NCBI GenBank assembly: GCA_016194705.1
Contig: JACQAZ010000001.1
Location: forward strand, 20,019 to 84,018
Direction: 5' to 3'
Length of the DNA stretch: 64,000 nt
Source of the DNA: Elusimicrobiota bacterium
Lineage (GTDB): Bacteria > Elusimicrobiota > Elusimicrobia > UBA1565 > UBA9628
The position numbers were made by a program, and so were the translations under genes. Of this stretch, positions 21,562-40,538 are shown piece after piece (position 1 is the first letter of the stretch; each line of letters starts with the position of its first letter). The notes under the pieces were generated by a model. The model had not been told where the DNA came from and made no database searches. It was given only the letters and a program-made list of their open reading frames with translations.

Positions 21562-23235
21562 ATGACCAAACAAACCGTCTCCATGGTTTTGTCGCTTCTG
21601 CTGTGCGCCGCGCCCGTGTTCAACGCGGTCGGGGAAAACAGCGGGCAGCTCGATCCTCAGGCATACGCCCACAAAGACAATATTCCCCCGGATGACTTGG
21701 ATTCCCTGAAGACCAAGGGGTATCGATCCGACGCCGATGGCTTGTTCCCCTATGACGGCACCTGTTGTCTAAGAAACAGAGATGTATGGACGTTGCTTCG
21801 GGGAAAACCCTCCGGAGAGGACCAACCGTCGCGGGAACAAGCGCGCTCCGGGAAGCCCGAGCCAATCGTTGCGCCGGATATGGCCGGCCGACTCCAAAAC
21901 GGCATACAAAATGGCGTCAGAGACTGGGGTAATGGCGGCGATAAGGGAGATGCACTCATCACTGGCAGCGTGGCCGCTGTCCCAGACGTCCGCGGCGTCG
22001 CTCCCGCCCGCCGAGCTCTCCTCCGGGTCGCACACGCGAACAACGCTTCACCTTCCTCCGTACAACCCTGGGAGGTACATCTGGCGCCGTACAAGCAGGC
22101 GCCTGTCGCCTCCGCGGACACCGCGCCGCCCACAATGCCGGCGAAGCCGCCGGTCATTAAAGACGCGCGGACCGCACCCGCTACCGCAAGGCATTCCGCG
22201 ACGGGACAAGCGCAAAATTCCTCAACAAAGGGGGAAGTCGCAACTCCGGACGCGACTGTGGTCGACCACTCGAAACAGGACCTCAAGGGCGGGGAGACTC
22301 TCAAAACCTACAACAAGCAGCTCGACGATTTCTTCCAGGATTCCGCCCAGACGTCGCCTGCTTCAACCCTGAATCATGATACCGGCGTCCAATCGGGTGG
22401 CTATTCCCCGGTGGGCAGCTTCGGGCTCGCCGAAGGGTACGTCAACGACCAGCTCCAAAAGTTCATATCGGAGCTCCTTCGTCAAAGCGTCTCCCTGATG
22501 GGGTGGAAACTCGATATTAAATTAAAATTCAAGGAGAACCATGACGTGATGGTGGATATCGATATGAGCATCCCGCCTGGTTTTTTCGGCATGCCCAGCA
22601 CCGACAAGGATCTGCTCACCTATCACATAACCTCCAAGATGGAAGTGCTCAGCACCCCGCACCAGGGATATCTCATCTTCAAGCTCCCGCCGAACGGCAC
22701 CCTGTTCAAACGCGCCAATTCAGACATCCCGCCGGTCGCCATCCACACCGAACTGCTTTCGGACGCCGTGGCTATCGCCCGCGGATATTTGGCCGCGCTG
22801 TCCGGAGATATGGCGGGGTTCGACGCCGCGGCGGCGTTGCTTCAAAAGCAGATGGCCGCGCTTAAACTCCAAATGGACCAGCTCAACAAGGAACGCGACC
22901 GCAAAGAATACATGAAACTTCAGGCGCAGTTCAGGCTATTTGAGCTTCAAAAGGAAGCCACCGAGATCCAGCGCGGCCAGTTCAAGGACATCGCCGAACA
23001 GGTGCATACGCAGATGTTCTCTTTCGTCGGGGACAAGGAATTGAATTTGAACAATCTCCTGGCCGCGCGCGGCAACTCGCTGGTTCTTAAAGTCAACCTG
23101 GAGCAGATCACCCCGCCGAACATCTATAAGCTTGTGGCGGGCATACGGCTCAAAAATATCCAGGTAGAGGATCGTGACGGCCATAAGGAGTTGTACTTCT
23201 ATCTAGAAGGTCCTAAGGCGAAGAAGAAGGTATAG
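21562..23235 (+). CDS. Secreted hypothetical protein with low-complexity N-half and TULIP-like C-half with coiled-coil insert (lower GC)
   Basis: Signal peptide; codon usage visibly more AT-rich than the flanks; C-terminus resembles the next gene. Confidence 0.7.
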   Translation: MTKQTVSMVLSLLLCAAPVFNAVGENSGQLDPQAYAHKDNIPPDDLDSLKTKGYRSDADGLFPYDGTCCLRNRDVWTLLRGKPSGEDQPSREQARSGKPEPIVAPDMAGRLQNGIQNGVRDWGNGGDKGDALITGSVAAVPDVRGVAPARRALLRVAHANNASPSSVQPWEVHLAPYKQAPVASADTAPPTMPAKPPVIKDARTAPATARHSATGQAQNSSTKGEVATPDATVVDHSKQDLKGGETLKTYNKQLDDFFQDSAQTSPASTLNHDTGVQSGGYSPVGSFGLAEGYVNDQLQKFISELLRQSVSLMGWKLDIKLKFKENHDVMVDIDMSIPPGFFGMPSTDKDLLTYHITSKMEVLSTPHQGYLIFKLPPNGTLFKRANSDIPPVAIHTELLSDAVAIARGYLAALSGDMAGFDAAAALLQKQMAALKLQMDQLNKERDRKEYMKLQAQFRLFELQKEATEIQRGQFKDIAEQVHTQMFSFVGDKELNLNNLLAARGNSLVLKVNLEQITPPNIYKLVAGIRLKNIQVEDRDGHKELYFYLEGPKAKKKV

Positions 23236-23242
23236 AACTCCC

Positions 23243-23848
23243 ATGACGACAAAAACCATCTGGCTTCTCTGCCTCCTCTCGCCGGCATGCACCCTGCCGC
23301 GCGCGCGGGCCGAGGTTCCGGCTCCGCTCCGGCCCGACCTCGTGCTGCGGCTCAACCAGGAACTCTTCGAGACCCAGGGGGTTCAGGAAGCCCTGGATGC
23401 GGGCAAACGACGGTTGGACCCGGGCTTCCACGATGCATTCCTCGATTTCAGGAACGACGGCATCCACCTCAAGTTCACGCAATCGCTCTTATGGAAAGAA
23501 TTCGAATTCGACATAATCCTGCGTCTACTCTGGACCGGCCGCAACACATTCGAAGCGCATCTCCAAAAATTCGATGTTTCCGGGAAGCTCCTTTTATTCC
23601 ATTTCAAGGTCGACCTTAAAACGCTGAAGGCCCAGTTATTCCAATTTTTCAAGCTCAACATCCAAGTCGTGCTGCTGGACGCCATCGATTTAAAGTATGT
23701 CGGGAACACGGCGGACCAATCGCTCGTATTCCGCGGCACGGTCAACGTGGGCAAGCTGGTCCCCCTGCCGGCGGCCGCCGACCTCGATCTCTCGGGCATA
23801 CAGACGCAGGACCGATTGTTGGTTTTAGAGTTGGCAAGACGTCCTTAG
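23243..23848 (+). CDS. Secreted hypothetical protein, TULIP-like, co-transcribed with the previous gene
   Basis: Signal peptide; alternating hydrophobic strands; 7-nt gap to the upstream gene. Confidence 0.7.
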   Translation: MTTKTIWLLCLLSPACTLPRARAEVPAPLRPDLVLRLNQELFETQGVQEALDAGKRRLDPGFHDAFLDFRNDGIHLKFTQSLLWKEFEFDIILRLLWTGRNTFEAHLQKFDVSGKLLLFHFKVDLKTLKAQLFQFFKLNIQVVLLDAIDLKYVGNTADQSLVFRGTVNVGKLVPLPAAADLDLSGIQTQDRLLVLELARRP

Positions 23849-23955
23849 CGCCCCCCTGCGATACCCTGTCCACCATCCTTCCTGGAGGCGCCCGCGATGG
23901 TTTCATCTTACGGCCGTCGAAATTCTAGCCCAGTTTCACGGTATAATAGGAAGGC

Positions 23956-24312
23956 ATGAACCGGCTCATCCTCCTGGTCTTCACCGTTTTGGCGTGGCCC
24001 TCGCTGGCGCACGCCGAAGAGAAGAAGCAAAAGAACAAAGTCGGTACCCTACCGGCCATGCAACAGCGCGTGCTCGACGCGAAGACGGCCGGCGAGACCC
24101 ACGAGATGACCCTCGACGCGATCTTCGACAACCACCAGCACGGAGACGGCTCGGTCAATGCGACGACCGACAAGCTGCTCTCTGGAACCGCCGTGAGCCC
24201 GGAGCAGGCCAAGGAAGCCCGGCTCAAGGAAGCCGAGTGCCGAGCCGCAGCCCGCCACGGCAAGCGCAAAGGGCCGCGCTGCCGGGGCCGCCAGACTCGC
24301 GGCGAGCGCTAA
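23956..24312 (+). CDS. Small secreted hypothetical protein with basic tail
   Basis: TATAAT and AGGAAGG upstream; signal peptide MNRLILLVFTVLAWPSLAHA. Confidence 0.65.
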   Translation: MNRLILLVFTVLAWPSLAHAEEKKQKNKVGTLPAMQQRVLDAKTAGETHEMTLDAIFDNHQHGDGSVNATTDKLLSGTAVSPEQAKEARLKEAECRAAARHGKRKGPRCRGRQTRGER

Positions 24313-25415: not shown

Positions 25416-25572
25416 CTAGCAGGGTGCTGAAAAACTCGCGGTCGGCGAGCGTCGGGTCCGGGGCAGTCGTTCTCCGCTATTGGTCCGTTGCTTTAAAGCA
25501 ACGGACCAACGAGGAGTGATGGCCGAGCGGCGGAGCCAAGGCGGCCGAATGACTTTTTCAGCAACCTGCTAG
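25416..25572. mobile_element. MITE-like element with terminal inverted repeats and an internal 30-bp palindrome
   Basis: CTAGCAGGGTGCTGAAAAA ... TTTTTCAGCAACCTGCTAG (1 mismatch); CTAG at both ends; TTGGTCCGTTGCTTTAAAGCAACGGACCAA at 25480-25509. Confidence 0.7.
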
Positions 25573-28500
25573 CGCCCGAACGCGGCGAGCGCGAAGAGGC
25601 GCGGCACGATCGGGAAGCCGGGCAGGTTCGCCTTCGGGGTCGCCGCGTCGGCCGCGGCGCGAAGCGCCAGACGCGCCTCCTCGGACCGCGCGAGCGCGAG
25701 CTCGGCCTCGGCGATGAGCCTCATGTCGTCCGGCGGCGGGACGGGTTTGGCCTCTTCGAGCTTTTTCCGGTAGGCCTCGTAGACCTTGCGCCTCTGCTTC
25801 TGCTGGGCCGCGCCCAAGCCGACCTGCACCGCGACCCGCACCGTGTCCACGGCGATGTGATCGGGAGTCGCGACTGTCTGTCCGATGCCGTCCGAATCGG
25901 TGCGGTCGCCGATCGCATTCAGGGTGTTCTCGACGGCCAGCCTCCCGGTCTGGTGGTCCACCTTCGTTTCCGCGTACTCTCCCGCGCGGCCGCGCACGGA
26001 TTCTACGAAGCTCTTGCGCACGCTCCCCGTAAACGAGCCCATGATCTGGCCCCGGGCGTCCTCGAGGTCCTCCTTGGCCCAGCCGATCTCGCGCAGCAAG
26101 GAGCCCTTGCCCAGATGGACGTCTTTCTTGCCGTCCGTCGAGACCGGGGCTTTCTCGTGCTCCCACTCGCCCGGCTTTATCGGAGAGTCGTTGTCGACGC
26201 GCTTGGGGAACTGCGACGGATCGTAGTAGCGGTCGACCGGATCGGGCAGGATCTCGAAGATGTCGATGAAGTGCACGACCTTGCCGAGCGCGCCGCGGTG
26301 GACGGTCGCGCCGCCGTCGGTCTGGCGCATGTAGACGCGCCCGATGTAGCCTTCCTGGTTGGGGTCGCGGCCGGTGATCATCTCGATGGGCGTCTTGATG
26401 ATGCCGCGGGGGGTCTCGAGGATGATGTTGCCCCAATTCTGCGGCATGTAGGCCCAGCGTCCGTTGGCCCCGAGGCCGCTCTCCGCTTTCGAGAGCCTCT
26501 GCGCGAGGATCGCGCGTCCCAATGAGACGGGAAGGCCCGTCCTCGGGTCTATGTAGCGCTTGAGCCGCGCGATGGGCGAGATGTCCTTGTCGGTCTGCTT
26601 CCAGACCTTGCCCTCCATATCCTCGATCCACCAGGCGCCGGCCTCGCGCTCGAGTTCCTCCTTGCTGCGGAACACGCGCGCGACGCGCCCCTGCGCGTCG
26701 ACCTCCAGAGCCCAAATCTCGCCTTCGAGCCACTGCAAAGCGGCGCCGCCGCCGAGCTTGAAGGAGAAACCCTTGCCCGAGGCGCTCACGACGACGCCCT
26801 CGCCGTCGAGCCCGAGACGGAGGTCCGAGACGAGGTGGAAGGACCAGTCGTGCTCGAGCGACTTCGCGTCCTTGGCCTTTTCGCGCGCCGTGGAAAGTTC
26901 TTCCTGGTTCATGTAGACGGCCGCGACCTCGGCGTCTTTGTCGAGCGCATAGGCGAAGCCCTCCAGCTTGAGGTTGAGCCAACCTTTGCGCCGGGCGGCG
27001 AGCTCGTCGTTGGCCGCCTCGTCGAGCAGGGCGCCGGCGCCGCGCTTGCCGAATTCCGCCCTTTGGAAGAGCCGCGCGTAATCGGAGGCCTCGAGCGACT
27101 CGAGGCTCGGGAAGGTCCCGGCCGGCAGGGCCTCTCCCGAGACCTGCACGAGGATCACGAGCTCGTCGGGGCTCCTCCAGCGCGCGGCCAGAGCGTGGAC
27201 CGGCAGGCGCAGGCCCGCGCGCGGGTCGCGCGCCTTGTTGAAATAGAGGACCTTGCCCTGGCGCTCCATCCTCCTGAGCTCGGCCAGGCTCAAGGCGCCC
27301 GCGTACTGGCCCGCCTTCGCGCCGGACTCCACGCGAAGCGCCAGCTCGGATTTCTCGAGCGCCGCGTCGACTTCCTGGCGGCGCGAGCGCTGCTCGGCGC
27401 GAGCCTTCAGAACCTCGAGCTCTTCTCGGCGCGCATCGACGCCGGCCACGATCTCTTGGCCCCCCGCGCGCCGCGCCTCATCCTCGGTCGTCGGCCGGGC
27501 GCCGACGAAGGTGGGGGGGAGAAGGAAGCGCTTGCCGCCTAGCTCGACGACCTGGTTGCGGCCCTTGAGCCACTCCAGATCCTTGCCCGTCAGCCATTGC
27601 GTCTCGCCGCCGCCCTTGACCTCGTAGAGCGCCGGCAAGGACTCGGGCTTGGCGATCCAGCGCTCGCGCATCGCGCGCAGGAAGGCCAGCGACTCGGAGG
27701 CCGGCTGGATCTGGTCGCGCGCTTCCGGCGAGGCGCGCAGGGCCTGCATGCGCACCTCCCCCAAGGTGATCGCGCCGTCGAGCGTCACGATGCCGCGGCC
27801 GTAGCGCAGCATGTCGCGGCGGCGCTCGAGGCTGCCCCGCAGCCCGAACATCGCGTTGAGGCCGCTCGTCCAGCGCGGGTCCAAGCCCACCTCCTTCATC
27901 GCGAAGGTCTTGAGGACCTCGTTGTCGTAGGCGATGAGCGCCTTCACGTAGGCCTCCAGCGCCTTGTCCTTGAGCACGTAGTCCTCGGGCTTGAGCTTCT
28001 GCTGGAGGTAGTGGTGCAGCGCCTCCTGCCTCGCCTCGTAGACCGCGTCCTTGAGCGTCGAGAGGCGCGCATAGGCCGCCTCGACGGCCGGGGGCGCCGG
28101 GACCGCGCGCCAGTAGGCGGCGCGCAGGGCCTGCATCTCGTTTTGCTGACGGCGCACGTCGCCCTCGGCGCCGACGGCCTGGCTCTCGACGTCGGAGCGC
28201 AGGAAGCCCATCAGATCCGTCCAGGCCGAGCCGCCGCTTTGGGCCTCGAGCTCCCGCAGGATTTGCTCCAAGGCTGATTCCACGCGGCGCCGTCTGCCGT
28301 CGAGGTCGACCTTGGTCAGAAGGTCGAGCTTCTCGGCAGGCGTGAAGTCCTTGCTGAGCACGAGGCTCTGGCTGCGGCGGCTCGAGCGGTACTTCTCGAG
28401 CTCGCCCTTGAGGGACTGGCGCAGCTTGGGAGAGACCCCCGAGAGCAGCGAGTCCTGGCCTTTCTCGAAACCCTCGTCGAGCAGGCGCTGGGCCCAGTAG

Positions 28501-31500
28501 GCCAGCAGCTCCTGGCGCGGGGTCTTCTCCCCGGTCGCCGCGGCGGGAGCCGTCATCGATACGCCGCCCGAGAGGGAGGCCTGCCCCGTGTAGCCCAGGG
28601 CCTCGAGCTCGGTCACCAGGCGGATGAAGTCGAGCCTCAGGGCGTAGACGGTCGCGACCCACTCCTCGTGAGCCGCGGAGGCCTCGAGCTGGGCGGCCAC
28701 GACGTCGGCCTCGGTCCCCATGCGCATTCGCAGGCGCTCGACGGCCCCCATGAGGTTGCGGCGCGCGACCTCGACGCGGGAGCGCTCCGCCTCGAGGAGC
28801 TTGACCTTGTCGGAAACCGAGGCCATCAGGGAATGCAGCATCAGCGAAAGGCTCTTGAGCCGGTCCTGGGACTCGAGCTCGCGGCGCAGGGCGTCGTTGA
28901 GTATGCCCTCGAGGCTCTTCATGACCTTGATGGGATCGGGCGCCTCGAGGAAAACGCCGCCGACCCAGCGCCCCTGGAAGAGGCCGAAAGCGGCCAGCGG
29001 CGTGAAGCCCTTGTAGCTCATGCGCTCGGCGATGATGTTGGCCTGCATCTGGGAGAGCGGGTCGCGGGCGGCGGCGATCTCCTCGGGCAGGCCTTCCTGG
29101 AACAAATGGCGCTTGAGGAGTTCCAGGTCGAGGGCCTGCGCCTCGCTCAGGTAGCGGTCCGCCGCCGCGCCGAGGTCGGCGTCCTCGGCCGGGATGAGAG
29201 TGAGGAACTGATCGAGAGTCGTCCCCGACGGCAGCCTCAAGTGAGCCGCGACCTCGGCGAAATCGCGTTCGAGGGCCTTGCGCGCGCTCTGCGCCGCTTC
29301 GCCCTGGGCGCCGCGCGCTATGGCGACCTCCAAGCGCAGGCGCGAGAGCAGTATGTCGGCCTTGGCCTTCGCCAGCGAGAGCTCGGTCTTGTAGAGCGAG
29401 TCGGCCTTCTCTTCCTGCAGCTTCGCAAGCGCGATGAGCGCCTCGGGCGGAGTCGCAGCACTTCGCAGGCGCACCTCGATCCAGCCCTCGACGAATTGCT
29501 TGCCGATGGGCTCCTTGGTCAGGGACTGGCGCAGGTCGTAATACCTCAAGGTCCCGTTCGATTCGAACGGAGCCTCCTGCGGCACGGAGGCGCGCAAATC
29601 GCCGACGTCGGGACTCGCCGACTCCGCCCCCAGGGCGACTTCGAGCGCGTCCTTGAGCGCCGCGAAACTCGACGGCAGAGAGCCCTGCTTCTGCTCTTTT
29701 GCCCCATCTCCGCCGTAAGCCATCATCATCGCCTTGAGCCCGTAGATGCGGTTCCGGAGTTGGATCGCCGAAAGCCGGCTCGCCCCGTCGGTTCGGCCCT
29801 CGACGGCCTTCAAGCCCCGCTCGGCCGCGGCCAGTTCGAAGGACCAGCGCGCCCTCATGGCCGGCAGGCGCGCGTCGAAGGAGCGCAGGTCGCGCTCGGC
29901 CGTCAGGGTCTGCTCGCGCGCCAAGGCGACCAGTTCGGGCGACGCCAGGCCCTCGCCCGAGAGCGCCGAGATCAGCCGCCCCAAGGCTCGGCCTATCAAA
30001 GAGATCGGCTCGACGCGGATGTCTTGGACCTTGAGGTTCTTGTCGACGATCTGCTCGACGGATCTGGCGACCTTGACGCGCGAGGCCAGCACGTCCCTGC
30101 TGGCGGCGAGCGGATCCATCTTTCCCAGCCGGTCCTTGAGCTGCGCCAGGGCCTCGTCCATCGTGTCGGTGAGAGCAACGCCGGCGTCGAGCGGCCGGCC
30201 CAGCAGATAGTTGAGTTGGGCGCGGGCCTGGGCGAACTCCCCCTCCAGGTGTTTTAGGTCAGCGCGAGCTTGATCGAGCTCCAAGGATCGTTGAGCGCCG
30301 CCGTCCTGGGCGCGCTCGAGCTCCGGGATGATCTGGTCGCGGTAGAGGTCGCGCGAGTCGCGCGCCGCGCGGAAGGCCGCGTAGCTCTGGAAGAGCTGCA
30401 GGGAGAGGTCGCCTCCGACCTTCTCCTGCAGCCGTGAGTACATCGCCGCCTCGCCGCCGCGGCGCTCCATCGAGAGCTCTTTGAGCTCGCCCGGCTGCAG
30501 GGCGACGTTGAAGATCGGGAAGACCCCCAGGCCGGTGATCCCGAAGGCCGGGAGCAGCGCGACCCCGGCCGCCGTCAGGTTGAGCCCGATGTTGACGTCG
30601 ACGGAGACCTTCTGGAAGCGGTGGGAGGCCGCCTCCATGAGCTCGGAGGCGGCCTGCGAGCGCTGGGCCAGGGCCTCCATGTTCGGAGAATTCCCGACGG
30701 CCGCGTCGAACGCCTCGCTCAGCCGCCGCGGCGCCTCGGGGGCGTTGGCGTAATCGTCCTCGGCGCGGTCGGCGTTTTGAGCGCCGTCCATGACGCTCCA
30801 GGCGTCCTTGAGCGAGCCCTGGGCGCGCGCCTCGAGCTGGCCGCTCGTGGTCCAATACCAGCGCCTGAACCGCGCCCACAGCTCGGCCGGCGGGATGAGT
30901 CCGTTGCGCCACTGCCGGATTCCGTCGGCCAGCGCCGACCGCGCCGCCGGCGCCGAGGCCTGGAGCTGCCAGAAGCGCGCGTCCCAGGACTCCGCGATCA
31001 GGCGCTCCGAGCGCGACTTGAGCCGGAAATCGCGCAGGGAGCCGGCCATCTCCGCGATGATGGCCCGGTCCTGAAAGCGCAGGGCCTTGTCGTTCGACTT
31101 GGCGGCGGGGTCATAGATCGGCAGCCGCAGCGAGACCCCCGCGCCGATGACCTGGTTGGCGAGCACGTCCTGAAGCTGGACGCCCAGCGAGAAGGTGATC
31201 TTCTCGAAAAACGGAATGTAGTCCATCAGGTTGAAGCCTTCCTCGGGAACGCCCATCTGGCCGCGCAGGCCCGAGATCAAGTCGGAGAGGCGGTCGGGGC
31301 TCCCCAGAGCCTTCTGCAGCAGAGCGGAGAAGCCTTCGAGATCCTGCGGGGTCAACTCGTCGAGGATCGCGGTGTCGTCGGGGCCCCGGCCGGTCAGCGC
31401 GTTGTAGCGCAGCAGGGCCTGGCGATGGCGGTCGGCCGCCGAAAGCGCGCGGGTCTGCGCCTCGGCGCGGATGACGGGGTCGTCGGCGTTGGCGTACATC

Positions 31501-34500
31501 CAGGCGGCCAGCGACATGTCCCAGCGCGACTCGACGAGCTCGACGAGCGAGGCCTGCCAGGCCTTGGTGATGTCCAAGAGTCGCGACTGCAGGGCCAGAC
31601 CCTCCTGGAAGAGGGCGAGGATCTTGTCGTGGATGAGCGCCTTCTGGGACTTGGTCAAGGTGAGCTCGGTCATCGTGCCGACCTGGAAGCCGCCGCCCGT
31701 GGCGCGCTCGGCCGTGCCGGTGCCGACCGGGTTGGTCACGAAGCCGATCATGCCCCTCATACGAACGTTGTCCAGAATCGCCCCTGCCTTTTGCAGCTCT
31801 TTGAGGTCCCGTGTCATCTGGCCGATCTCGAGCGAGAGGAGCTTCTTGCCGACGTCGGCGTCGAAGACGCGCTTGAGTTCCAAGACGAGGCGCTCATCGG
31901 GCGACGAGCGCTTGAAGAACTCGTCGACGGACTTGTTGAATTTCGCGAGAGTCTGGCCTCCCTGCAGGTCCTCGGCGGCGCCGCCGGCTACGAGGCGCCA
32001 GAGCTCGCCCAAAGTGAAGGTCGTCTGCGCGCCCAGCGTCAGCCGGTCGTTGAGGCCCACGTAGCGGCTGCCGTAGGAGACGAAGGCGTCGGTGTTCTGG
32101 CCGAGCTTCTTCCTGAGCTCCACGAAGTAAGTGCTCGCGTCCCCGAGGATCTTCCCCTGGGCCGAGAGGGCGAGGCCCTGGTTGGGCAGCTCGAAGCTCA
32201 CGCGCCCCGACAGGGTGTTGTACTTCTCGCCGAGTTCCCCGGTACCGCCGATCGTGGTCTTGACAGGCGTGCCGTCAATATCGAAGGAAAAGCCCTTGAC
32301 GATGGTCGCTCCCACCGCGTTCTGCTGTATGTCGTCGGTGCCGGTGACCCTCGAGAGGTAGAAATCGACCTTGAAGCTGTCCTTGGTCTCGAGGGCCTTC
32401 TGGAGGTCGAAGCCCACGCCGACCTTGTCGCGCCGGAAGAACTTGTTGTCGCCGTGGGCCCCGATCACGAAGTCCTTGTCGAGGTCGGGGTCGAACTTGG
32501 TGAAGTCGAGGTTGACGGTCTGCAGGAACTTTCGCGGGTCCTTGGCGAACAACGCCGACTCCTCGGCGTTGAGGCTCATGATCTCGGAAAACTTCACGCT
32601 GGCCTTGACGTTGCCGCCGTAGTAGTAGGGCTTGTTGGCGGCATCCCTGGCCGCGAAATCGGCGAAGCCCGCGGCGCCGAAGTAGAGCTTGCCGTTGGCC
32701 AGCATCATCGCGAAATCGTCGAAGATCATCATGCGCGCCTCCTGGACCTGCGAGCCCACCTTGAGGTCCGGAGGTATGTCCTGGATGAACTTGTGGAAGG
32801 TCACGTCGAGGTAATTGACGAAGTTCTTGCCCTGCAGCGATTCGACCTGCACCGTGATGCCCTGGTCGCCGAACGGGGCGTTGCCGTCGGAAGGCGGGCT
32901 TGCGAAGCGGTGGCCGATGACGGAGACGTTGTTGCCCCAGAGGTTGAGCACGTTGCCCATGGTCATCTGGCTCGAGGTCTCGAGGCCTCCAGGCGTCGAG
33001 AATTCGGTCTGATAGACGAGGTAGAAACCGTCCGAGCCCGTGCCGACCTCGACCATCTTGGTGTTCGGGAGAAGCTGCGCCAGCGACATCGGGTTCTTGA
33101 GGATATCCTCGCGCAGGCCCGCGATGTCGCGCGCGGTGGAATCCGCCGAGATTGCGCCGAAGAGCTGGGAGAGAAAATTAGAGAACATCGACTTCGGGAT
33201 CACGATGGTCTGGGGTCCGCCCGGGCCCGTCGCGAGCCACGAGGAGCCCTGGCCGGAGACCGCCTGTACGCGGTTGGCCAGTTCCGGCGAGAGCTGGCGC
33301 AGGTCGCCGACGGCTTCGAGCTTCTTCGAGAGCAGGGCTTGCTCTTTCTGCATCGCGATCAGCGATTCCTCGAGAGTCTTCTTGGCGGCCGCGTATTGGT
33401 CGGTGAGCTTGTGGTGCTCGATGTTGGTCTCGAGGACGGCGCGCGTCTTGTCCTGGATCGCCGAGAGGTTCTCGGTCACGCGCCGCAGGGCGCTCTCGTG
33501 CGGGTCGTTGAGCTGCTTGAGCCAGCCGGTGACCTCGGCCTTCTGCTTGGCGATCTGGTCCTGGGCTTTGGTCAAGGTGTCCTTGAACTGCTGGGCCGCC
33601 TTGCGGTCGGCGTCGAGCGCCTGGTCGCCCGAGCTGTAGACCTGCCCGAGAGAGTCGTAGTAGCCGGCGGCGTCGGTGACGGTCTGGAAGGACTCGGTGT
33701 CCCAGGAGGTCTTCTGTTGGAAGATGCCCGCGCCCTCCTTGGCCGTGTCCCTGATCCGCGTGTAGATCGAGATCTTGCGGTCGGGCACCGCGTCGCCTCC
33801 CGAAAGGTCGCCGGAGACGAAGGCGTCGTCCGCGTCGAGGTCCGCGAAGACCGCATCGAGCGCTGAGGTCGCATTATTAAGGAAAGCCTCGAAGAGGGGG
33901 ATGCGTTCGTTGAGGTTCTTGTTGGCCGAGACGATCAGCGCGTCGGAAAACAGGAAGCGGGCCAGAGCCTCGGCGACCGAGTCTCCGGTCCCGGTCGCAG
34001 TCGTGGGCACGAGGCGCTTGACGACGTCGAGGCCGTAGAGCGCCAGCTGCTGGAGATTCTGGAGCGCGAGCGGCGGCTGCGGGCCCGTCGGTATGCTGCC
34101 GCCCGAGCCGCCGATGTTGAGATCGGTCTTCCCGGCCTGCGCCGAGGCTGCGTCGGCGATGGCCTTGATGTCGGCGGCCATGTTCTGGAGGACCTTGCCG
34201 TCGGCCATCGCCTTAAGGCGAGTCACGGAGTCCGCGCCGGTCGCAGATAGGTCCGTCGGCATCTTGTATTTCGAGGCGAGGTTGTACTTCCCGGGGAACA
34301 GCGCGTCCATCTTGCCGAGGATGTCGTTGATCTGCGCGTCGCGGGCGTTGATCTGTCCGGCTCGGAGGACCTTCTCCGCCTGATAAACGACGGCGCGCTT
34401 GACCAAGGAGTAGGGCGCCGGCTCGCCGTAGACGTCCTCGGTCTCGTTGTTGTTGGGGTCCTTGCGGCGGCGGATCTGGTCGACGAGGTCGTTGACGAGC

Positions 34501-37091
34501 TTGCGGTAGTCGTTGAACTGCTTGCGCACCTCCGCGATGCCGGCCTTGGCGCCCGCGACGTCGCCGAGCTTGGCCCCGCCGGAGGCCAGTCCCCAAGGGA
34601 AGGTCTTGTGCAGGCCGTCGTAGATCTTCTTGTAGACGTCTCCTTTCTGCTGATACAGCAAGGCCAGGCTGTCGCCGGTCGCGTGCGGATCGGCCAGGTC
34701 GATGCGGTCCTGCTGGTAGGGGATCAAGGTCTGGTCGAGCAGCTGCTGGAGGCCCTGAAGCTCGGGACGCAAGGTCGAGTCGACCAAAGCGGTCTTGCGG
34801 TCGATCAAGGCCTGCGCCTGGGATTGGGGGAAGCCCGCGTTGACGTACGCGACGTCGGCGGCGATGTCGCTCATGATCGCCTGCAGCGCGGCCACCGACT
34901 TCGTGAAGGCGTCGCGCACGGCGGGCAGGATCCGGGTGATCGGCTTGTCCAGCGCCTTGGAAGTCGCCTGGGCCTCGAGGCGGCGCACGGTCATGTCGCC
35001 CATGAAGGTCAAGCGCTTGGCGATCCCGAGCTTGGCCATCTTGCCGGAGAAGCCCGCGTCGGTGCCGGGGAAGGAGAGGCCGTCGATCTGGTCGACATAC
35101 TTGGGCAGGAGGTCGCGCAAGTCCTGCGCCGAACGGCCCGAGAGCCGAGCTAAAGTCGTGCCGGCGCCCTGCTCGACGGCCGGGGCCAGCGCGTCGATCT
35201 CGGAGGCGACCGCGTCCGAGGTCTGCCCTATGTTCGAGGCGAGCGCGTTCTCCTCGTTCTGATAAGCCACCAACGACTCGGGGATCGAGTCGCCGAAGTC
35301 GTTGAGCACGCGCTTGGAATTGCCGGGATCGAGCGCGCGGTTGACGCCGGCCAGCGTGTCTTGATGCTCTTTGAGCTGAGCGGCCCAATAGACCTTGCGG
35401 TCGGCTAGGATCTGCAGGGCCTGCGCGACCGTCGGATTGCTCGCGCTGACCGCCGGTATGCCCGGGACCAGCAGGACGAGCACGCCCGCGAACTCGACGG
35501 GCGTCGACGCCAATTTCGCGTCCGCGCCGCTGAGCAATGAGAGATCCGAGCTGATCTCGGCGGATTTCGATTTGAGGTAGTCCATCGAGAGGCTCGTCAG
35601 GTCGGTCGTGCCGCCGCCGCCGGAGCCGTGGATGAGCTTCTGTTGGAGCTGGGGCAGCAGGGCCAGGCGCCGCTGATATTCCGACGGCGCGTCGGCGCTC
35701 TGGCCCTTGTCGCGGGCGTTGATCGCGGCGACCAGGCCCGTAACGCCGGTCTTGAATTCAGTGATCCTCTGCACGCCCTGCGCGGCCTGATCGGAGAGCT
35801 TGCCGAAATCTTTGGTGTGCTGCTTGTCCAGGTCCAAGGCGTCCTGGGCGTCCTTGTTCCACTGGTCCTTCTTGGCCTTGTTGGCCGCGGCCGAGGCCGC
35901 GTTGGCGTCGTTGGCCTTCTTCTGGGCGTCGATCTTGGCGATCTTCTGGTCGAGGAGCTGCTGCATCCCGGCGAGCGCAGCCTGCGCCGAGTTGAGGAGA
36001 TTGAGGCTGTAGGAGAGGTCCATCACCATCGCCAGACGGGAAAAATTCTTGCGGAATTCGAGCATGTCCGAGCCGGAGCGCCGCTCGCGCAGAGCCGAGT
36101 CGCGCGCGCGGTCGGCGACGGCCAGCATCGCGGCCAGGGCGTCTCGCGCGGCGAGTTGGGCCTGAACGCTGGATTTGAGGGCCTCGACCTTGGCCACCTC
36201 CTTGGAAACCTGACGCTCCGTTTCGGTGCCCGCCAGGGCGGGCTTGGTCCCCGCTCCCGGCGCGGGAGCGGACTTCATGTCCTCGAAGAGCCGGCGAAGG
36301 GCATCCAGCGAAGCCCACTTGAGCTCGTTGGACTGCGTGCGCCCCGGAGCCGTCGCGCCTGGCCCCTCGAGCAGGTCCTTGTAATTCTTGGCCAACTCCT
36401 CGAGCCGAGCGAGCTCCTCGGCGTTCTTGGGCGGCGACGAGAGGTCGGCGCGCTGGGCGAGTTTTTCCTGCGCGGCCTCCTCATCGGAGACCGGCGTCGG
36501 GATGACGAGCCGAGCCGTGCGCGTCGGCAGCACGACCTCCGCCCGGGGCGGCGCCGGCGACTGGGGCGGCGCGGCGGCCGCCTCGAGAGCCGCGGAAGGG
36601 ACTCCCGAGAGGCTGGCGGCGAGATTCCTCGCGTCGGCCTGAAGCTTCTCGCCCTCGCGCTCCTTGCGCCGCTCGGGCGCCTGCTGCATGAGAGCGCGCA
36701 GCTCCTCGAGGCCGTCTCGCGCGAGCTCGAGGAGCTCCGGACGCGGCGCCGCGAAGTCGTCGAGGCCGGCAAGAGTCAAGGGAACTTCTACGCGGGTCGA
36801 AAGCCAGGCGGCCACCGCGCGACGGCCGTCGGCCGAGCGGATGGCCCGCGCTTGGGCCCGCAGGAGCCCCGCGATCGGGGGCGGGTCGACGCTCAGCAGC
36901 CGCGCCAATCCCGCGAAGGCCTGGTCGGGAGCGGCCGCCGGAACCATGGAGGCCCTCACGGGGCGGGCCGCGACGGGGGGGGCTGAGAGCTCGGCCGCCA
37001 AGGCCGGCCAAGGGCCGCAGAGGGAAAGGGAAACGACCCCCGCGAGCGCGCGGGGGGCCAGGGATGGGGCTCGGCGAGAGGGGTATCCCAT
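25569..37091 (-). CDS. Giant (3840 aa) secreted envelope protein: helical stalk + beta-barrel-like block + tandem TolC/OEP-like repeats + C-terminal domains
   Basis: Uninterrupted ORF with host-like codon usage and a signal peptide. TolC-like motifs: GVSLRLPIYD, WRNGLIPPAELW, LSEAFDAAVGNSP, ARAQLNYLLGRP, RMGTEADVVAAQ. Confidence 0.85.
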   Translation of the reverse strand: MGYPSRRAPSLAPRALAGVVSLSLCGPWPALAAELSAPPVAARPVRASMVPAAAPDQAFAGLARLLSVDPPPIAGLLRAQARAIRSADGRRAVAAWLSTRVEVPLTLAGLDDFAAPRPELLELARDGLEELRALMQQAPERRKEREGEKLQADARNLAASLSGVPSAALEAAAAPPQSPAPPRAEVVLPTRTARLVIPTPVSDEEAAQEKLAQRADLSSPPKNAEELARLEELAKNYKDLLEGPGATAPGRTQSNELKWASLDALRRLFEDMKSAPAPGAGTKPALAGTETERQVSKEVAKVEALKSSVQAQLAARDALAAMLAVADRARDSALRERRSGSDMLEFRKNFSRLAMVMDLSYSLNLLNSAQAALAGMQQLLDQKIAKIDAQKKANDANAASAAANKAKKDQWNKDAQDALDLDKQHTKDFGKLSDQAAQGVQRITEFKTGVTGLVAAINARDKGQSADAPSEYQRRLALLPQLQQKLIHGSGGGGTTDLTSLSMDYLKSKSAEISSDLSLLSGADAKLASTPVEFAGVLVLLVPGIPAVSASNPTVAQALQILADRKVYWAAQLKEHQDTLAGVNRALDPGNSKRVLNDFGDSIPESLVAYQNEENALASNIGQTSDAVASEIDALAPAVEQGAGTTLARLSGRSAQDLRDLLPKYVDQIDGLSFPGTDAGFSGKMAKLGIAKRLTFMGDMTVRRLEAQATSKALDKPITRILPAVRDAFTKSVAALQAIMSDIAADVAYVNAGFPQSQAQALIDRKTALVDSTLRPELQGLQQLLDQTLIPYQQDRIDLADPHATGDSLALLYQQKGDVYKKIYDGLHKTFPWGLASGGAKLGDVAGAKAGIAEVRKQFNDYRKLVNDLVDQIRRRKDPNNNETEDVYGEPAPYSLVKRAVVYQAEKVLRAGQINARDAQINDILGKMDALFPGKYNLASKYKMPTDLSATGADSVTRLKAMADGKVLQNMAADIKAIADAASAQAGKTDLNIGGSGGSIPTGPQPPLALQNLQQLALYGLDVVKRLVPTTATGTGDSVAEALARFLFSDALIVSANKNLNERIPLFEAFLNNATSALDAVFADLDADDAFVSGDLSGGDAVPDRKISIYTRIRDTAKEGAGIFQQKTSWDTESFQTVTDAAGYYDSLGQVYSSGDQALDADRKAAQQFKDTLTKAQDQIAKQKAEVTGWLKQLNDPHESALRRVTENLSAIQDKTRAVLETNIEHHKLTDQYAAAKKTLEESLIAMQKEQALLSKKLEAVGDLRQLSPELANRVQAVSGQGSSWLATGPGGPQTIVIPKSMFSNFLSQLFGAISADSTARDIAGLREDILKNPMSLAQLLPNTKMVEVGTGSDGFYLVYQTEFSTPGGLETSSQMTMGNVLNLWGNNVSVIGHRFASPPSDGNAPFGDQGITVQVESLQGKNFVNYLDVTFHKFIQDIPPDLKVGSQVQEARMMIFDDFAMMLANGKLYFGAAGFADFAARDAANKPYYYGGNVKASVKFSEIMSLNAEESALFAKDPRKFLQTVNLDFTKFDPDLDKDFVIGAHGDNKFFRRDKVGVGFDLQKALETKDSFKVDFYLSRVTGTDDIQQNAVGATIVKGFSFDIDGTPVKTTIGGTGELGEKYNTLSGRVSFELPNQGLALSAQGKILGDASTYFVELRKKLGQNTDAFVSYGSRYVGLNDRLTLGAQTTFTLGELWRLVAGGAAEDLQGGQTLAKFNKSVDEFFKRSSPDERLVLELKRVFDADVGKKLLSLEIGQMTRDLKELQKAGAILDNVRMRGMIGFVTNPVGTGTAERATGGGFQVGTMTELTLTKSQKALIHDKILALFQEGLALQSRLLDITKAWQASLVELVESRWDMSLAAWMYANADDPVIRAEAQTRALSAADRHRQALLRYNALTGRGPDDTAILDELTPQDLEGFSALLQKALGSPDRLSDLISGLRGQMGVPEEGFNLMDYIPFFEKITFSLGVQLQDVLANQVIGAGVSLRLPIYDPAAKSNDKALRFQDRAIIAEMAGSLRDFRLKSRSERLIAESWDARFWQLQASAPAARSALADGIRQWRNGLIPPAELWARFRRWYWTTSGQLEARAQGSLKDAWSVMDGAQNADRAEDDYANAPEAPRRLSEAFDAAVGNSPNMEALAQRSQAASELMEAASHRFQKVSVDVNIGLNLTAAGVALLPAFGITGLGVFPIFNVALQPGELKELSMERRGGEAAMYSRLQEKVGGDLSLQLFQSYAAFRAARDSRDLYRDQIIPELERAQDGGAQRSLELDQARADLKHLEGEFAQARAQLNYLLGRPLDAGVALTDTMDEALAQLKDRLGKMDPLAASRDVLASRVKVARSVEQIVDKNLKVQDIRVEPISLIGRALGRLISALSGEGLASPELVALAREQTLTAERDLRSFDARLPAMRARWSFELAAAERGLKAVEGRTDGASRLSAIQLRNRIYGLKAMMMAYGGDGAKEQKQGSLPSSFAALKDALEVALGAESASPDVGDLRASVPQEAPFESNGTLRYYDLRQSLTKEPIGKQFVEGWIEVRLRSAATPPEALIALAKLQEEKADSLYKTELSLAKAKADILLSRLRLEVAIARGAQGEAAQSARKALERDFAEVAAHLRLPSGTTLDQFLTLIPAEDADLGAAADRYLSEAQALDLELLKRHLFQEGLPEEIAAARDPLSQMQANIIAERMSYKGFTPLAAFGLFQGRWVGGVFLEAPDPIKVMKSLEGILNDALRRELESQDRLKSLSLMLHSLMASVSDKVKLLEAERSRVEVARRNLMGAVERLRMRMGTEADVVAAQLEASAAHEEWVATVYALRLDFIRLVTELEALGYTGQASLSGGVSMTAPAAATGEKTPRQELLAYWAQRLLDEGFEKGQDSLLSGVSPKLRQSLKGELEKYRSSRRSQSLVLSKDFTPAEKLDLLTKVDLDGRRRRVESALEQILRELEAQSGGSAWTDLMGFLRSDVESQAVGAEGDVRRQQNEMQALRAAYWRAVPAPPAVEAAYARLSTLKDAVYEARQEALHHYLQQKLKPEDYVLKDKALEAYVKALIAYDNEVLKTFAMKEVGLDPRWTSGLNAMFGLRGSLERRRDMLRYGRGIVTLDGAITLGEVRMQALRASPEARDQIQPASESLAFLRAMRERWIAKPESLPALYEVKGGGETQWLTGKDLEWLKGRNQVVELGGKRFLLPPTFVGARPTTEDEARRAGGQEIVAGVDARREELEVLKARAEQRSRRQEVDAALEKSELALRVESGAKAGQYAGALSLAELRRMERQGKVLYFNKARDPRAGLRLPVHALAARWRSPDELVILVQVSGEALPAGTFPSLESLEASDYARLFQRAEFGKRGAGALLDEAANDELAARRKGWLNLKLEGFAYALDKDAEVAAVYMNQEELSTAREKAKDAKSLEHDWSFHLVSDLRLGLDGEGVVVSASGKGFSFKLGGGAALQWLEGEIWALEVDAQGRVARVFRSKEELEREAGAWWIEDMEGKVWKQTDKDISPIARLKRYIDPRTGLPVSLGRAILAQRLSKAESGLGANGRWAYMPQNWGNIILETPRGIIKTPIEMITGRDPNQEGYIGRVYMRQTDGGATVHRGALGKVVHFIDIFEILPDPVDRYYDPSQFPKRVDNDSPIKPGEWEHEKAPVSTDGKKDVHLGKGSLLREIGWAKEDLEDARGQIMGSFTGSVRKSFVESVRGRAGEYAETKVDHQTGRLAVENTLNAIGDRTDSDGIGQTVATPDHIAVDTVRVAVQVGLGAAQQKQRRKVYEAYRKKLEEAKPVPPPDDMRLIAEAELALARSEEARLALRAAADAATPKANLPGFPIVPRLFALAAFGR

Positions 37092-38632: not shown

Positions 38633-39003
38633 CCAAGTTCCCCCGGTTTTGTCGTTTACCTCCACCGGTGGAGGTAACCATCATGGAAGTGTCGGCAGCA
38701 CCAAGATGATTTGGTCTGCCGTTGTTGTTGGAGCTCTCGCCGAAGGCGAGAGCCGCCCGCCGCAGGCGCCGGTTTATGGGCTGCCGCCCCGCGGTCGGGC
38801 CCTCGCGCGCTCGAAAGGTCCGGGTCCGCCGCCACAGCCGCTGCGCAGGGACAGATCACCAATTTGATTTTCAGAATTCCCCTATAGGGTTTTGGGACAA
38901 TAAACTGCGTCAGGCCTTTGTCCCAAAACCCTCCTCGGGATTCCTAAAATACGGCGCGGAGCTTCCTCCCGCGGCCGCCGGGTTTGGGGCCGGGGGAACT
39001 TGG
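38633..39003. mobile_element. MITE-like element with 14-bp perfect TIRs, flanking direct repeat and internal palindromes
   Basis: CCAAGTTCCCCCGG at 38633-38646 and CCGGGGGAACTTGG at 38990-39003; CAATAGCGCC on both sides (38623-38632 and 39005-39014). Confidence 0.75.
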
Positions 39004-39015
39004 ACAATAGCGCCC

Positions 39016-39044
39016 TTGACTCGCGGCGTTACACCTGCTACATT
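39016..39044 (+). promoter_or_regulatory. Leaderless promoter TTGACT-17-TACATT
   Basis: ATG 39051 lies 6 nt after the -10 box; no SD. Confidence 0.65.
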
Positions 39045-39050
39045 TCGAGC

Positions 39051-40538
39051 ATGAACGCCGAATCACTATGGCTCATCCGAGGGCGACAAGCCCTCGCCCT
39101 TCTCCTCTGCTTCTCGCTTAGCTCGTGCGCCACGCTGGCCGTCACCCCGGAGCTCAAGCCGGCGCCGCCCGCTCGGGCCGTCGCGGGCAAACTCGGCATC
39201 CAATACGAGGGGGAGCAGCTCAAGCGCGTTTTCGCGGCCGCCGACCGCTCCGCGATCGGCGCGGCGTCCGGCCAGTTTTTCTCCGACGTGACCGTGCTCC
39301 CTCCCGAGAGCCGCTACGCGGCTCCCCAGGACCTCTTCGACCAATACGGCACGGACCTCATCCTCCAGGCCCAGGTCGCCGACACCGTGAGCAACGGGGC
39401 CGTCAATGCGCTGTTCGCGAGCTGCTTCCTGCTGATGTGGTTCTGCATCGCGACCGTGCCCCAGATGACCATGACCGACGACGTCACCCTGCAGGGGAAC
39501 CTGCGCGACTCCCGTACGGGACGGCTGCTGTGGGCCGGAACCGTCAAGTCCCGGGGCACCGATCACTTCACGCCGATGGGCTCCTCGGGCATCCAGCCGC
39601 TGCTGGTCCAGCGGGTCGTGCACAACGCCGTCATCGAGCTCATGCAGACCGCCGCGGGGCAGGTCTCCGGCTACCGCCCGGAGTCGGTCAAGGAGGAGAG
39701 CCTGCAGGCGGCCGTGCGCAAGGCGCCCGGCCTGGCCAACCTCCATCTCCTGCATCCGGCCGCCAAGTCCAAGAACCGCTACGCCATCGTCATCGGCATC
39801 GACCGCTACCGCGAGCATCTGCCCAAGGCGGACTTCGCGGCCGACGACGCCAGAGACGTCGCCAAGTTCCTCATCGAGCGCGCGGGCTACCCGGAGGAGA
39901 ACGTGGTGGTCAGGCTCAACGAGGAAGCGAGCAAGGGCGACATGGAAAAGTACTTCGAGTCCTGGGCGAAGAACAACGTCGACGCGAGCTCGAGCCTGCT
40001 CGTCTACTACTCCGGCCACGGCTCGCCCGACGTCAACAACGGCGACGCCTACATCGTCCCTTACGACGGCGATCCGGCCTACATCGAGCAGACCGGCTAC
40101 CCGCTCAAGAAGCTCTACAGAGTCCTCGACGGCCTGCCGAGCAAGAACACCTTGGTCCTGCTCGACTCCTGCTTCTCGGGAGCCGGCGGCCGCTCGGTGC
40201 TCATGGCGGGCGCCAGGCCCCTGGTCAACGTCAAGCCCGTCTCGGTCTCGGACCAAGGAAAGACCGTGGTCTTGTCTGCGACCTCCGGCAACCACATCAG
40301 CGTGGCCTACCGCGAGACCGGACACGGCCTCTTCACCCATTATCTGCTCCAGGGGCTCTCCGGCGAGGCCGACGCCAACGGCGACAACGCCGTCGACGTC
40401 CAGGAGCTATACGAATACCTCAGGCCTCAGGTGGAGCGCGTGGCGCGCAAGGTCTACAACACCGAGCAGGTGCCGCAGCTCATCGAGCCCGCGGCGATGC
40501 TCGGCTCGCCTCCGATCAGGATCGTCGTGTCGCAGTGA
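39051..40538 (+). CDS. Lipoprotein with C-terminal caspase-like (peptidase C14) domain
   Basis: Lipobox SLSSC; YAIVIGIDRY, YYSGHG (His), LDSCFSG (Cys), HGLFTHYLLQGL, EQVPQ. Confidence 0.88.
   Translation: MNAESLWLIRGRQALALLLCFSLSSCATLAVTPELKPAPPARAVAGKLGIQYEGEQLKRVFAAADRSAIGAASGQFFSDVTVLPPESRYAAPQDLFDQYGTDLILQAQVADTVSNGAVNALFASCFLLMWFCIATVPQMTMTDDVTLQGNLRDSRTGRLLWAGTVKSRGTDHFTPMGSSGIQPLLVQRVVHNAVIELMQTAAGQVSGYRPESVKEESLQAAVRKAPGLANLHLLHPAAKSKNRYAIVIGIDRYREHLPKADFAADDARDVAKFLIERAGYPEENVVVRLNEEASKGDMEKYFESWAKNNVDASSSLLVYYSGHGSPDVNNGDAYIVPYDGDPAYIEQTGYPLKKLYRVLDGLPSKNTLVLLDSCFSGAGGRSVLMAGARPLVNVKPVSVSDQGKTVVLSATSGNHISVAYRETGHGLFTHYLLQGLSGEADANGDNAVDVQELYEYLRPQVERVARKVYNTEQVPQLIEPAAMLGSPPIRIVVSQ

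Follow-up and report, generated by a model that had tools for sequence, protein, structure and literature searches.

A predicted porin-type beta-barrel within a giant Elusimicrobiota protein, ahead of a putative TolC-like region

Outer-membrane beta-barrels are normally stand-alone proteins or terminal domains and TolC ducts are trimers; can a single polypeptide hold an internal barrel as well as the equivalent of a whole TolC duct? The question is raised by a giant gene within 64,000 nucleotides of an Elusimicrobiota bacterium (assembly GCA_016194705.1, contig JACQAZ010000001.1, positions 20,019-84,018, forward strand), the whole stretch of DNA analysed here, which we refer to as the window. 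A first-pass annotation had pointed to a strand-rich segment in the middle of the 3,840 amino acid (aa) product and proposed a separate outer-membrane barrel immediately N-terminal to TolC repeats. Utilizing structure prediction, fold comparison, strand statistics and profile searches we consider it probable that aa ~1357-1693 form an autonomous outer-membrane-type beta-barrel, with a predicted wall like those of 18-strand channels (Occ/OprD, AlgE and Wzi). The layout of the giant gene in window coordinates is as follows.

25569-37091, minus strand: giant gene P0001, 3,840 aa with an ATG start, from the list of open reading frames (ORFs) and its translation
36993-37091, minus strand: signal-peptide-like N-terminus, aa 1-33, recognised by eye from a basic start, a hydrophobic core and an ALA-A site
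33024-36992, minus strand: N-terminal helix-rich region, aa 34-1356, with 43-61% of the residues A, E, L, K, R or Q and a length that varies among homologues
32013-33023, minus strand: predicted porin-type beta-barrel domain, aa 1357-1693, from an AlphaFold2 model, structural matches and dyad tests
31890-32012, minus strand: post-barrel helical linker, aa 1694-1734, with a helix at model residues 350-360 and conservation among giants in the alignment consensus
28572-31889, minus strand: TolC/OEP-like region, aa ~1735-2840, read from profile-profile comparison as three putative protomer equivalents (six OEP repeats)
25572-28571, minus strand: C-terminal region, aa 2841-3840, of unknown fold, for which Pfam and NCBIfam gave no family

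The barrel region has the strongest period-2 (beta-type) amphipathicity in the whole protein. The beta moment exceeds the alpha moment in 0.63 of its 11-residue stretches, compared with 0.36, 0.50 and 0.51 in the other three regions, and in this model-independent test the value of 0.63 was reached by one of 350 segments of equal length, that one being the barrel region itself. The residues in aa 1301-1700 are rich in aromatics (9-14%) and glycine, and the helix formers A, E, L, K, R and Q make up 30-38% of them; among the other 100-aa blocks aromatics are below 9% in 28 of 35, and the helix formers amount to at least 43% in all but two C-terminal blocks. Each of the 13 peptides quoted as strands in the first-pass annotation was located at aa 1355-1694 (window 32010-33029) and overlaps one of the 20 strands in the confident AlphaFold2 model described below, so the strand-rich segment that it had described is real. 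Outer-membrane barrels bear in their last strand a beta-signal with an aromatic or hydrophobic end; the final barrel strand of the giant has a conserved F-T-L end followed by G-E-L-W, in a domain that is internal to the chain, so that a comparison with the beta-signal stays tentative.

We utilized AlphaFold2 to model the segment in two runs. The first, covering aa 1331-1760 with the helical tail included and 42 alignment rows, gave an all-beta model with a mean predicted local distance difference test score (pLDDT) of 52.5 that was confident only at aa ~1550-1690, and the structural matches of this low-confidence model were already all membrane barrels. In the second run the query was trimmed to aa 1345-1705 and distant whole giants were added to the alignment (A4, 62 rows), giving a mean pLDDT of 87.6 and a predicted template modelling score of 0.78, with the five models ranging from 78.1 to 87.6. 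The resulting model is an all-next-neighbour antiparallel meander of 20 consecutive strands of 7-16 residues, connected mostly by turns of 2-5 residues. Strands 5 and 6 are separated by a single 17-residue loop that bears a short helix, and the model ends in a C-terminal helix. The 20 strand elements include two neighbouring ones of only 7 residues, and for this reason the barrel is described as having 18-20 strands. Strands of 10-16 residues joined by turns of 2-5 residues are typical of membrane barrels, and closed barrels this large are known to enclose a water-filled lumen and to depend on surrounding lipid.

Comparison of the second model with solved structures returned membrane barrels throughout the matches listed. 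The 50 Foldseek matches listed from the PDB were all outer-membrane barrels, with E values from 1.9e-6 and template modelling (TM) scores of up to 0.49, and the 50 matches listed by VIA-align among 48,161 representative chains were all membrane barrels by title, at Z values down to 14.0 (103 chains had a Z of at least 8). At the top of the VIA-align matches were PgaA (Z 15.9, root-mean-square deviation (rmsd) 4.6, 254 residues aligned), PelB (15.4), Wzi (15.2) and OpdQ/OccD3 (15.0), followed by Tom40, CdiB and BcsC at Z 14.7. Re-scoring of the best 1,000 Foldseek chains gave Wzi (Z 16.5, 270 aligned, rmsd 4.8), OccK3 (16.0, 269 aligned, rmsd 4.6), PgaA (15.9), FhaC (15.9) and AlgE (15.5, 277-280 aligned). 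Alignments to single-chain 18-strand barrels span the model from residues 1-3 to residues 350-351, and as the best-covering matches are 18-stranded barrels the predicted wall may be assigned to the 18-strand class. Neither a soluble sandwich nor a solenoid, the outcome that the first-pass annotation had set against its proposal, was present among the 50 matches listed in each VIA search or in the Foldseek list. The combination of AlphaFold and Foldseek that it had suggested as a check returned a barrel fold, and the proposal of a separate, self-closing membrane-type beta-barrel is upheld by a model with a pLDDT of 87.6 of which all listed matches are membrane barrels.

The faces of the strands were compared in a dyad test using strand limits from the AlphaFold2 model, the 62-row alignment and 2000 within-strand shuffles. 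In every strand one of the two faces is the more hydrophobic; hydrophobic residues make up on average 0.66 of this face and 0.30 of the opposite one, with polar or charged fractions of 0.16 and 0.39 respectively. The mean face contrast of 0.367 compares with 0.209 +/- 0.035 in the shuffled strands, none of the 2000 shuffles reaching the observed value. Charged residues in the window sequence itself number 10 of 113 on the hydrophobic face, where F, L, V, A and I prevail, and 30 of 116 on the opposite face, which is mostly G, S, T, D and K.

The second half of the question concerns the region that follows the barrel. Pfam OEP matches the giant below threshold at aa 1966-2070 (E 0.12, 12.6 bits) and at aa 2740-2820 (E 0.84, 9.8 bits), the cut-off being 22 bits. 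There are three canonical OEP genes in the genome of the window, the giant being unmatched by Pfam OEP at E <= 0.01. To build a reference profile, OEP genes were taken from 20 related genomes and 16 of the 32 candidate ORFs were kept following an iterative hidden Markov model (HMM) filter; the 16 dropped candidates were probably wrong ORF picks in GC-rich loci. For the giants the profile covered aa 1700-3000 of a 39-row alignment (38 rows entered the hhalign run), and its comparison with the 16-sequence OEP profile gave four matches near protomer length, spaced by half or whole protomers, at aa 1735-2108 (80.6%), 1855-2306 (81.5%), 2108-2447 (72.4%) and 2553-2840 (75.3%). The two hairpin regions of the OEP profile map to aa ~1775-1815, 1958-2002, 2160-2204, 2357-2385 and 2690-2725, so that of the six hairpins that three protomer equivalents should have the profile alignment places five, and the matching motifs are located at the hairpins and in the helix after them. 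A distant member of the barrel family, P0134, named 'TolC family protein' by NCBI, passes the Pfam OEP threshold (28.7 bits, E 1.4e-6) some 425 residues after its own barrel domain. Taken on these profile comparisons, a six-repeat TolC-type region at aa ~1735-2840 appears somewhat more probable than its absence. The adjacency of barrel and TolC repeats claimed in the first-pass annotation stands in part: the barrel ends about 40 aa ahead of the TolC/OEP-like region, the TolC similarity of which is remote but repeated.

The distribution of the domain was followed in protein databases and in genomes of the phylum. A word-indexed search limited to proteins of 2,112-6,720 aa (E <= 0.001) scored 1,943 candidates, 109 of which (2,163-5,940 aa) align with the whole of the segment at 42-88% identity; those with a named source are proteins of Elusimicrobia or Elusimicrobiota metagenome-assembled genomes (MAGs), nearly all of them annotated as 'hypothetical'. 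An exhaustive HMMER search of 1.84 billion cluster representatives of any length found only 71 clusters, again nearly all giant proteins, the most distant relatives (23-34% identity) being Elusimicrobiota giants and a few Omnitrophota giants. No stand-alone barrel was found among the seven matches of below 1,400 aa that were looked up, all of which are fragments or pieces of the domain: five are flagged as partial on contigs of <= 3.9 kilobases (kb) and two, unnamed, cover part of the domain. Within the phylum the barrel domain was identified in 9 of 151 sampled genomes and was not found in the other 142. The nine comprise all seven genomes from the order of the window, its own genome included, and both genomes from one further family, and on this sampling the giant gene appears to be confined to one clade of Elusimicrobiota. 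The genome of the window holds a second giant paralogue with the barrel (G000:C41:192022-193371, minus strand) in an open frame of 5,785 aa. P0147, a partial 2,503-aa protein from an Omnitrophota MAG, carries a distant copy of the barrel (E 3.4e-11) at its cut C-terminal end, with SecA_DEAD (aa 36-466) and peptidase M23 (aa 1517-1618) upstream of it, so that the barrel family extends to Omnitrophota giants with other N-terminal modules. The architecture of P0147 fits the giant proteins described in passages of 10.1101/2023.11.21.568195, and those passages mention neither TolC nor porin.

In the homologues the first residue of the barrel lies between about 1,050 and 3,100, and some 2,100-2,570 residues always come after the barrel. 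Across 38 homologues comparable in length, the identity shared with the window protein is 0.62 in the barrel, 0.42 in the N-terminal region, 0.47 in the TolC-like region and 0.41 in the C-terminal region; as judged from these alignments the barrel is the best-conserved module of the giant, its loops included. Homologues fall into size classes of ~3,800 aa and ~4,600-5,900 aa, differing mainly in the N-terminal part. Searches of Pfam and NCBIfam with the whole giant, seven overlapping pieces and the barrel segment gave nothing above threshold, aa 34-1356 being likewise without a recognised domain. The only Pfam match to the barrel segment was DUF7796, at E 0.1. The nearest neighbours of the barrel by protein language model are unnamed or DUF3187 clusters (score 0.93), and the nearest clusters bearing a Pfam family are Porin_4, NfrA_C, Phage_OMP and Tsx (0.86-0.88); given a low recognition value, these neighbours serve as leads only. 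The barrel domain is thus a new sequence family, of predicted outer-membrane-type barrel and in an unusual fusion, one that current annotation leaves blank.

The hydropathy of aa 15-33 is 1.51, placing the core of the signal-peptide-like N-terminus among the three most hydrophobic 19-residue stretches of the protein. The most hydrophobic of all, aa 532-550 (window 35442-35498, minus strand), has a Kyte-Doolittle value of 1.94, exceeding that of the signal peptide, and contains a Pro-Gly turn.

What the analysis shows is a fold class, a dyad pattern in the strands, conservation of the barrel and a remote similarity to TolC; from these we infer membrane insertion, a topology and an open or gated pore. 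The giant would be exported through its N-terminal signal sequence (Sec), and the general BAM machinery would insert the barrel into the outer membrane. Both flanks of the barrel would remain in the periplasm, because in bacterial barrels an even strand count as a rule leaves the two ends on the periplasmic side. Following the conserved helical linker of ~40 residues the chain would build a TolC-type duct from six repeats, its TolC/OEP-like portion of ~1,100 aa corresponding in length and in repeat phase to three TolC protomers, which have six repeats and twelve strands between them, and one chain would in this way set a porin-type barrel beside a TolC-type duct. The barrel is probably functional and more than a passive anchor, since it is the best-conserved module, loops included, and bears a helix in the loop between strands 5 and 6, a position that we take to be that of the constriction loop in classical porins. 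In its fullest form our proposal is tentative and somewhat short of an even chance: two different outer-membrane channels would share one chain, a porin-type barrel of a new family and a trimer-free six-repeat TolC duct, flanked by more than 2,000 residues of periplasmic helical scaffold, with the barrel acting as a gated pore coupled to the duct. Such a protein might be a one-gene envelope machine of one Elusimicrobiota clade, with distant copies of its barrel in Omnitrophota giants.

A number of observations weigh against the reading of an outer-membrane barrel joined to a TolC-type duct. For the barrel, the mean pLDDT in the first fold with 42 rows was just 52.5, TM scores against solved barrels reach no more than a modest 0.49 (rmsd 4.4-5 Å), and the Z values of the best matches lie so close together that no single barrel family is favoured. 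A Pfam search with 42 members of the barrel domain found none (0 of 42) that matches an outer-membrane protein family at E <= 1, and a PDB profile search with the barrel alignment (A2) returned one chance match at E 0.34. The dyad contrast is weak in strand 3 and strands 5-7 (0.11-0.17), as if something packs on their inner face. Closure of the barrel, the outward orientation of the hydrophobic face and the thickness of the belt are read from fold matches and sequence pattern and are to be taken as predicted. For the duct, the window protein falls short of the Pfam OEP threshold (12.6 bits against 22); OEP appears at E <= 1 in just 2 of 29 close homologues and at E <= 0.01 in one of eight distant giants. 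Comparison by hhalign of the downstream alignment (A3) with single canonical OEP sequences gave weak matches (10.3% and 2.9%) and became better only with the 16-sequence OEP profile; the three usable matches to a single-repeat OEP template were weak as well (61.6, 53.6 and 24.1%), self-comparison of aa 1700-3000 at a shift of ~405-418 columns gave 24.6% and 15.3%, and a PDB profile search with A3 found nothing. The hydrophobic 19-mer at aa 532-550 is not explained by the proposed topology, with which an inner-membrane helix at this position would be at odds.

Other explanations of the segment differ in what they make of the same data. Were it a soluble beta-rich domain (a sandwich, a solenoid or a lectin-like fold), with the barrel a modelling artefact, the pLDDT of 52.5 in the first model and the lack of a sequence link to outer-membrane protein families would be readily accounted for, and amphipathic strands do occur in sandwiches too. 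We regard this as very improbable in view of the second model (pLDDT 87.6, all five models at least 78), the absence of any soluble fold among the matches listed by VIA or Foldseek, and strands of 10-16 residues with turns of 2-5 residues across 337 aa, as is typical of membrane barrels. The strands could instead enter the outer membrane as part of a composite pore, paired with hairpins of the TolC type or with their counterparts in other chains. The AlphaFold2 run covered the domain by itself, in the absence of any such partner, strands 5-7 are hydrophobic on both faces as if packed inside, and TolC-type barrels are built from separate hairpins; however, AlphaFold2 closes the domain on itself with high confidence and single-chain 18-strand barrels align along the model from residues 1-3 to 350-351, making a composite pore unlikely.

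The first-pass annotation had also entertained a role for the barrel as translocator of the N-terminal stalk, and an arrangement similar to autotransporters or two-partner systems would have the barrel act as a secretion pore threading its own 1,350-aa N-terminal helical part to the surface, with the rest of the chain in the periplasm. The order of signal peptide, long 'passenger' and barrel resembles that of classical autotransporters, the barrels of FhaC and CdiB tie with the porins near the top of the matches (Z 13.4-15.9), and homologues differ in the length of the N-terminal part, a variability also seen in passengers. The model nevertheless lends no support to translocation, as its 20 strand elements, being even in number, would leave both flanks on one side, the periplasmic one, unless the linker sits in the pore. 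The predicted barrel looks to be of the 18-strand class, larger than the barrels of 12 strands with a linker helix in the pore or of 16 strands with POTRA domains that these systems have, the ~2,100 residues after it have no known counterpart in any autotransporter, Pfam and NCBIfam found no POTRA, autotransporter or TpsB family in the giant, and the NalP and AIDA-I barrels ranked lower with the first model (Z 7.1-7.3). We judge secretion of the N-terminal part improbable, if a little less so than the composite pore, and retain the autonomous outer-membrane-type barrel with both flanks in the periplasm as the preferred interpretation.

Two different pores in one chain had led to the suggestion in the first-pass annotation that a dedicated Omp85 might assist the giant, with a one-POTRA Omp85 encoded at 50887 as the candidate. 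The ORFs of the window that bear on this and on the surroundings of the giant gene are the following.

50887-52539, plus strand: probable short Omp85-like ORF, 550 aa, with a Pfam POTRA match at E 0.22 only and one or two putative POTRA domains
21562-23235, plus strand: P0161, 557 aa with a signal-peptide-like start, 2.3 kb beyond the stop of the giant gene and convergent with it
39000-40538, plus strand: 512-aa ORF with a Peptidase_C14 caspase domain, 1.9 kb upstream of the giant gene

The language-model neighbours of the ORF at 50887-52539 are clusters with Omp85 (29-38% of members) and POTRA (11-24%) at a score of 0.99, and its residues 57-190 weakly match proteins of ~760-885 aa from other genomes; it is probably a short Omp85. 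Near full-length relatives (E <= 1e-59) are present in 19 of the 151 genomes, namely in all nine that have the giant and in ten where the giant was not found. An Omp85-like ORF lies on the contig of the giant at a distance of 12-18 kb in three genomes of one order (G000, G014 and G013) and on a different contig or 245 kb away in the remaining genomes, and it adjoins a methylenetetrahydrofolate reductase gene. The Omp85-like ORF itself is therefore borne out, but its dedication to the giant is not, ten of its 19 carrier genomes being without a giant found; a dedicated Omp85 was rejected as its distribution across the 151 genomes is not giant-specific. At best the two genes display a conserved local gene order and not a specific co-occurrence.

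The neighbours of the giant gene encode an O-methyltransferase, a caspase-like peptidase, an aldo/keto reductase, an S9 peptidase and unknown ORFs, a gene content that suggests no transport operon, and no polysaccharide synthesis genes were found beside the giant gene. In the flanks of 43 related giant loci only the O-methyltransferase (two loci) and the caspase-like gene (one locus) recur. The caspase-like ORF at 39000-40538 also has a weak match to GNA1162-like lipoproteins, and a relative with 42% identity is located a short way past the giant gene at one related locus (L002). P0161 shares a motif of ~25 aa with the post-barrel linker of the giant (aa ~1700-1725), detected by tblastn (47-59% identity over 27-55 aa) and by hhalign (46%, E 2e-4), and on the basis of this shared motif may be a small partner or a decoy with the same docking motif. 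The flanks of the related loci showed no separate copy. The GC content of the window falls to 0.57 at 22001-24000, compared with 0.63-0.73 elsewhere; this dip spans the P0161 ORF and a 201-aa ORF (23243-23848), neither of which matches any family.

We know of no earlier report of a chain in which an internal barrel of 18-20 strands precedes the equivalent of a whole TolC, and the portion of the literature on Elusimicrobia giant proteins and on TolC as a single polypeptide or beta-barrel that was covered contained no description of such a protein. If the proposed architecture is true, the giant would test how the BAM machinery handles two consecutive barrel types in one substrate, would offer a natural single-chain TolC for structural work, and would hint at an envelope structure yet to be described in a phylum that is uncultured and little studied.

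Among known systems, the OprD/Occ porins (OccK3/OpdO and OccD3), AlgE and Wzi are, like the predicted barrel of the giant, single-chain antiparallel meanders, and the matches to them cover almost the whole domain, although alignment identity is 7-13% with no Pfam or PDB profile match. These proteins stand alone at ~360-490 aa, whereas the barrel of the giant is internal to a chain of 3,840 aa and, unlike them, has loops that are short and highly conserved. PgaA, BcsC and PelB (Z 15.9, 14.7 and 15.4) share with the giant the order of signal peptide, long helical periplasmic part and barrel; however, their helical parts consist of TPR repeats, for which Pfam gives no match in the giant, and their barrels have 16 strands and end the protein. 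The type V autotransporters and inverse autotransporters likewise place a membrane barrel in a long chain with a large non-barrel part. Their barrels have 12 strands and are terminal or near-terminal, while that of the giant is larger, with more than 1,300 aa on either side of it, and has no family match. As to the TolC/OMF family (Pfam OEP, PF02321), we know of no member in which a porin-type barrel precedes the TolC/OEP region; its canonical members are proteins of ~430-500 aa that carry two repeats and assemble as trimers, where the ~1,100 aa of the giant would supply all six.

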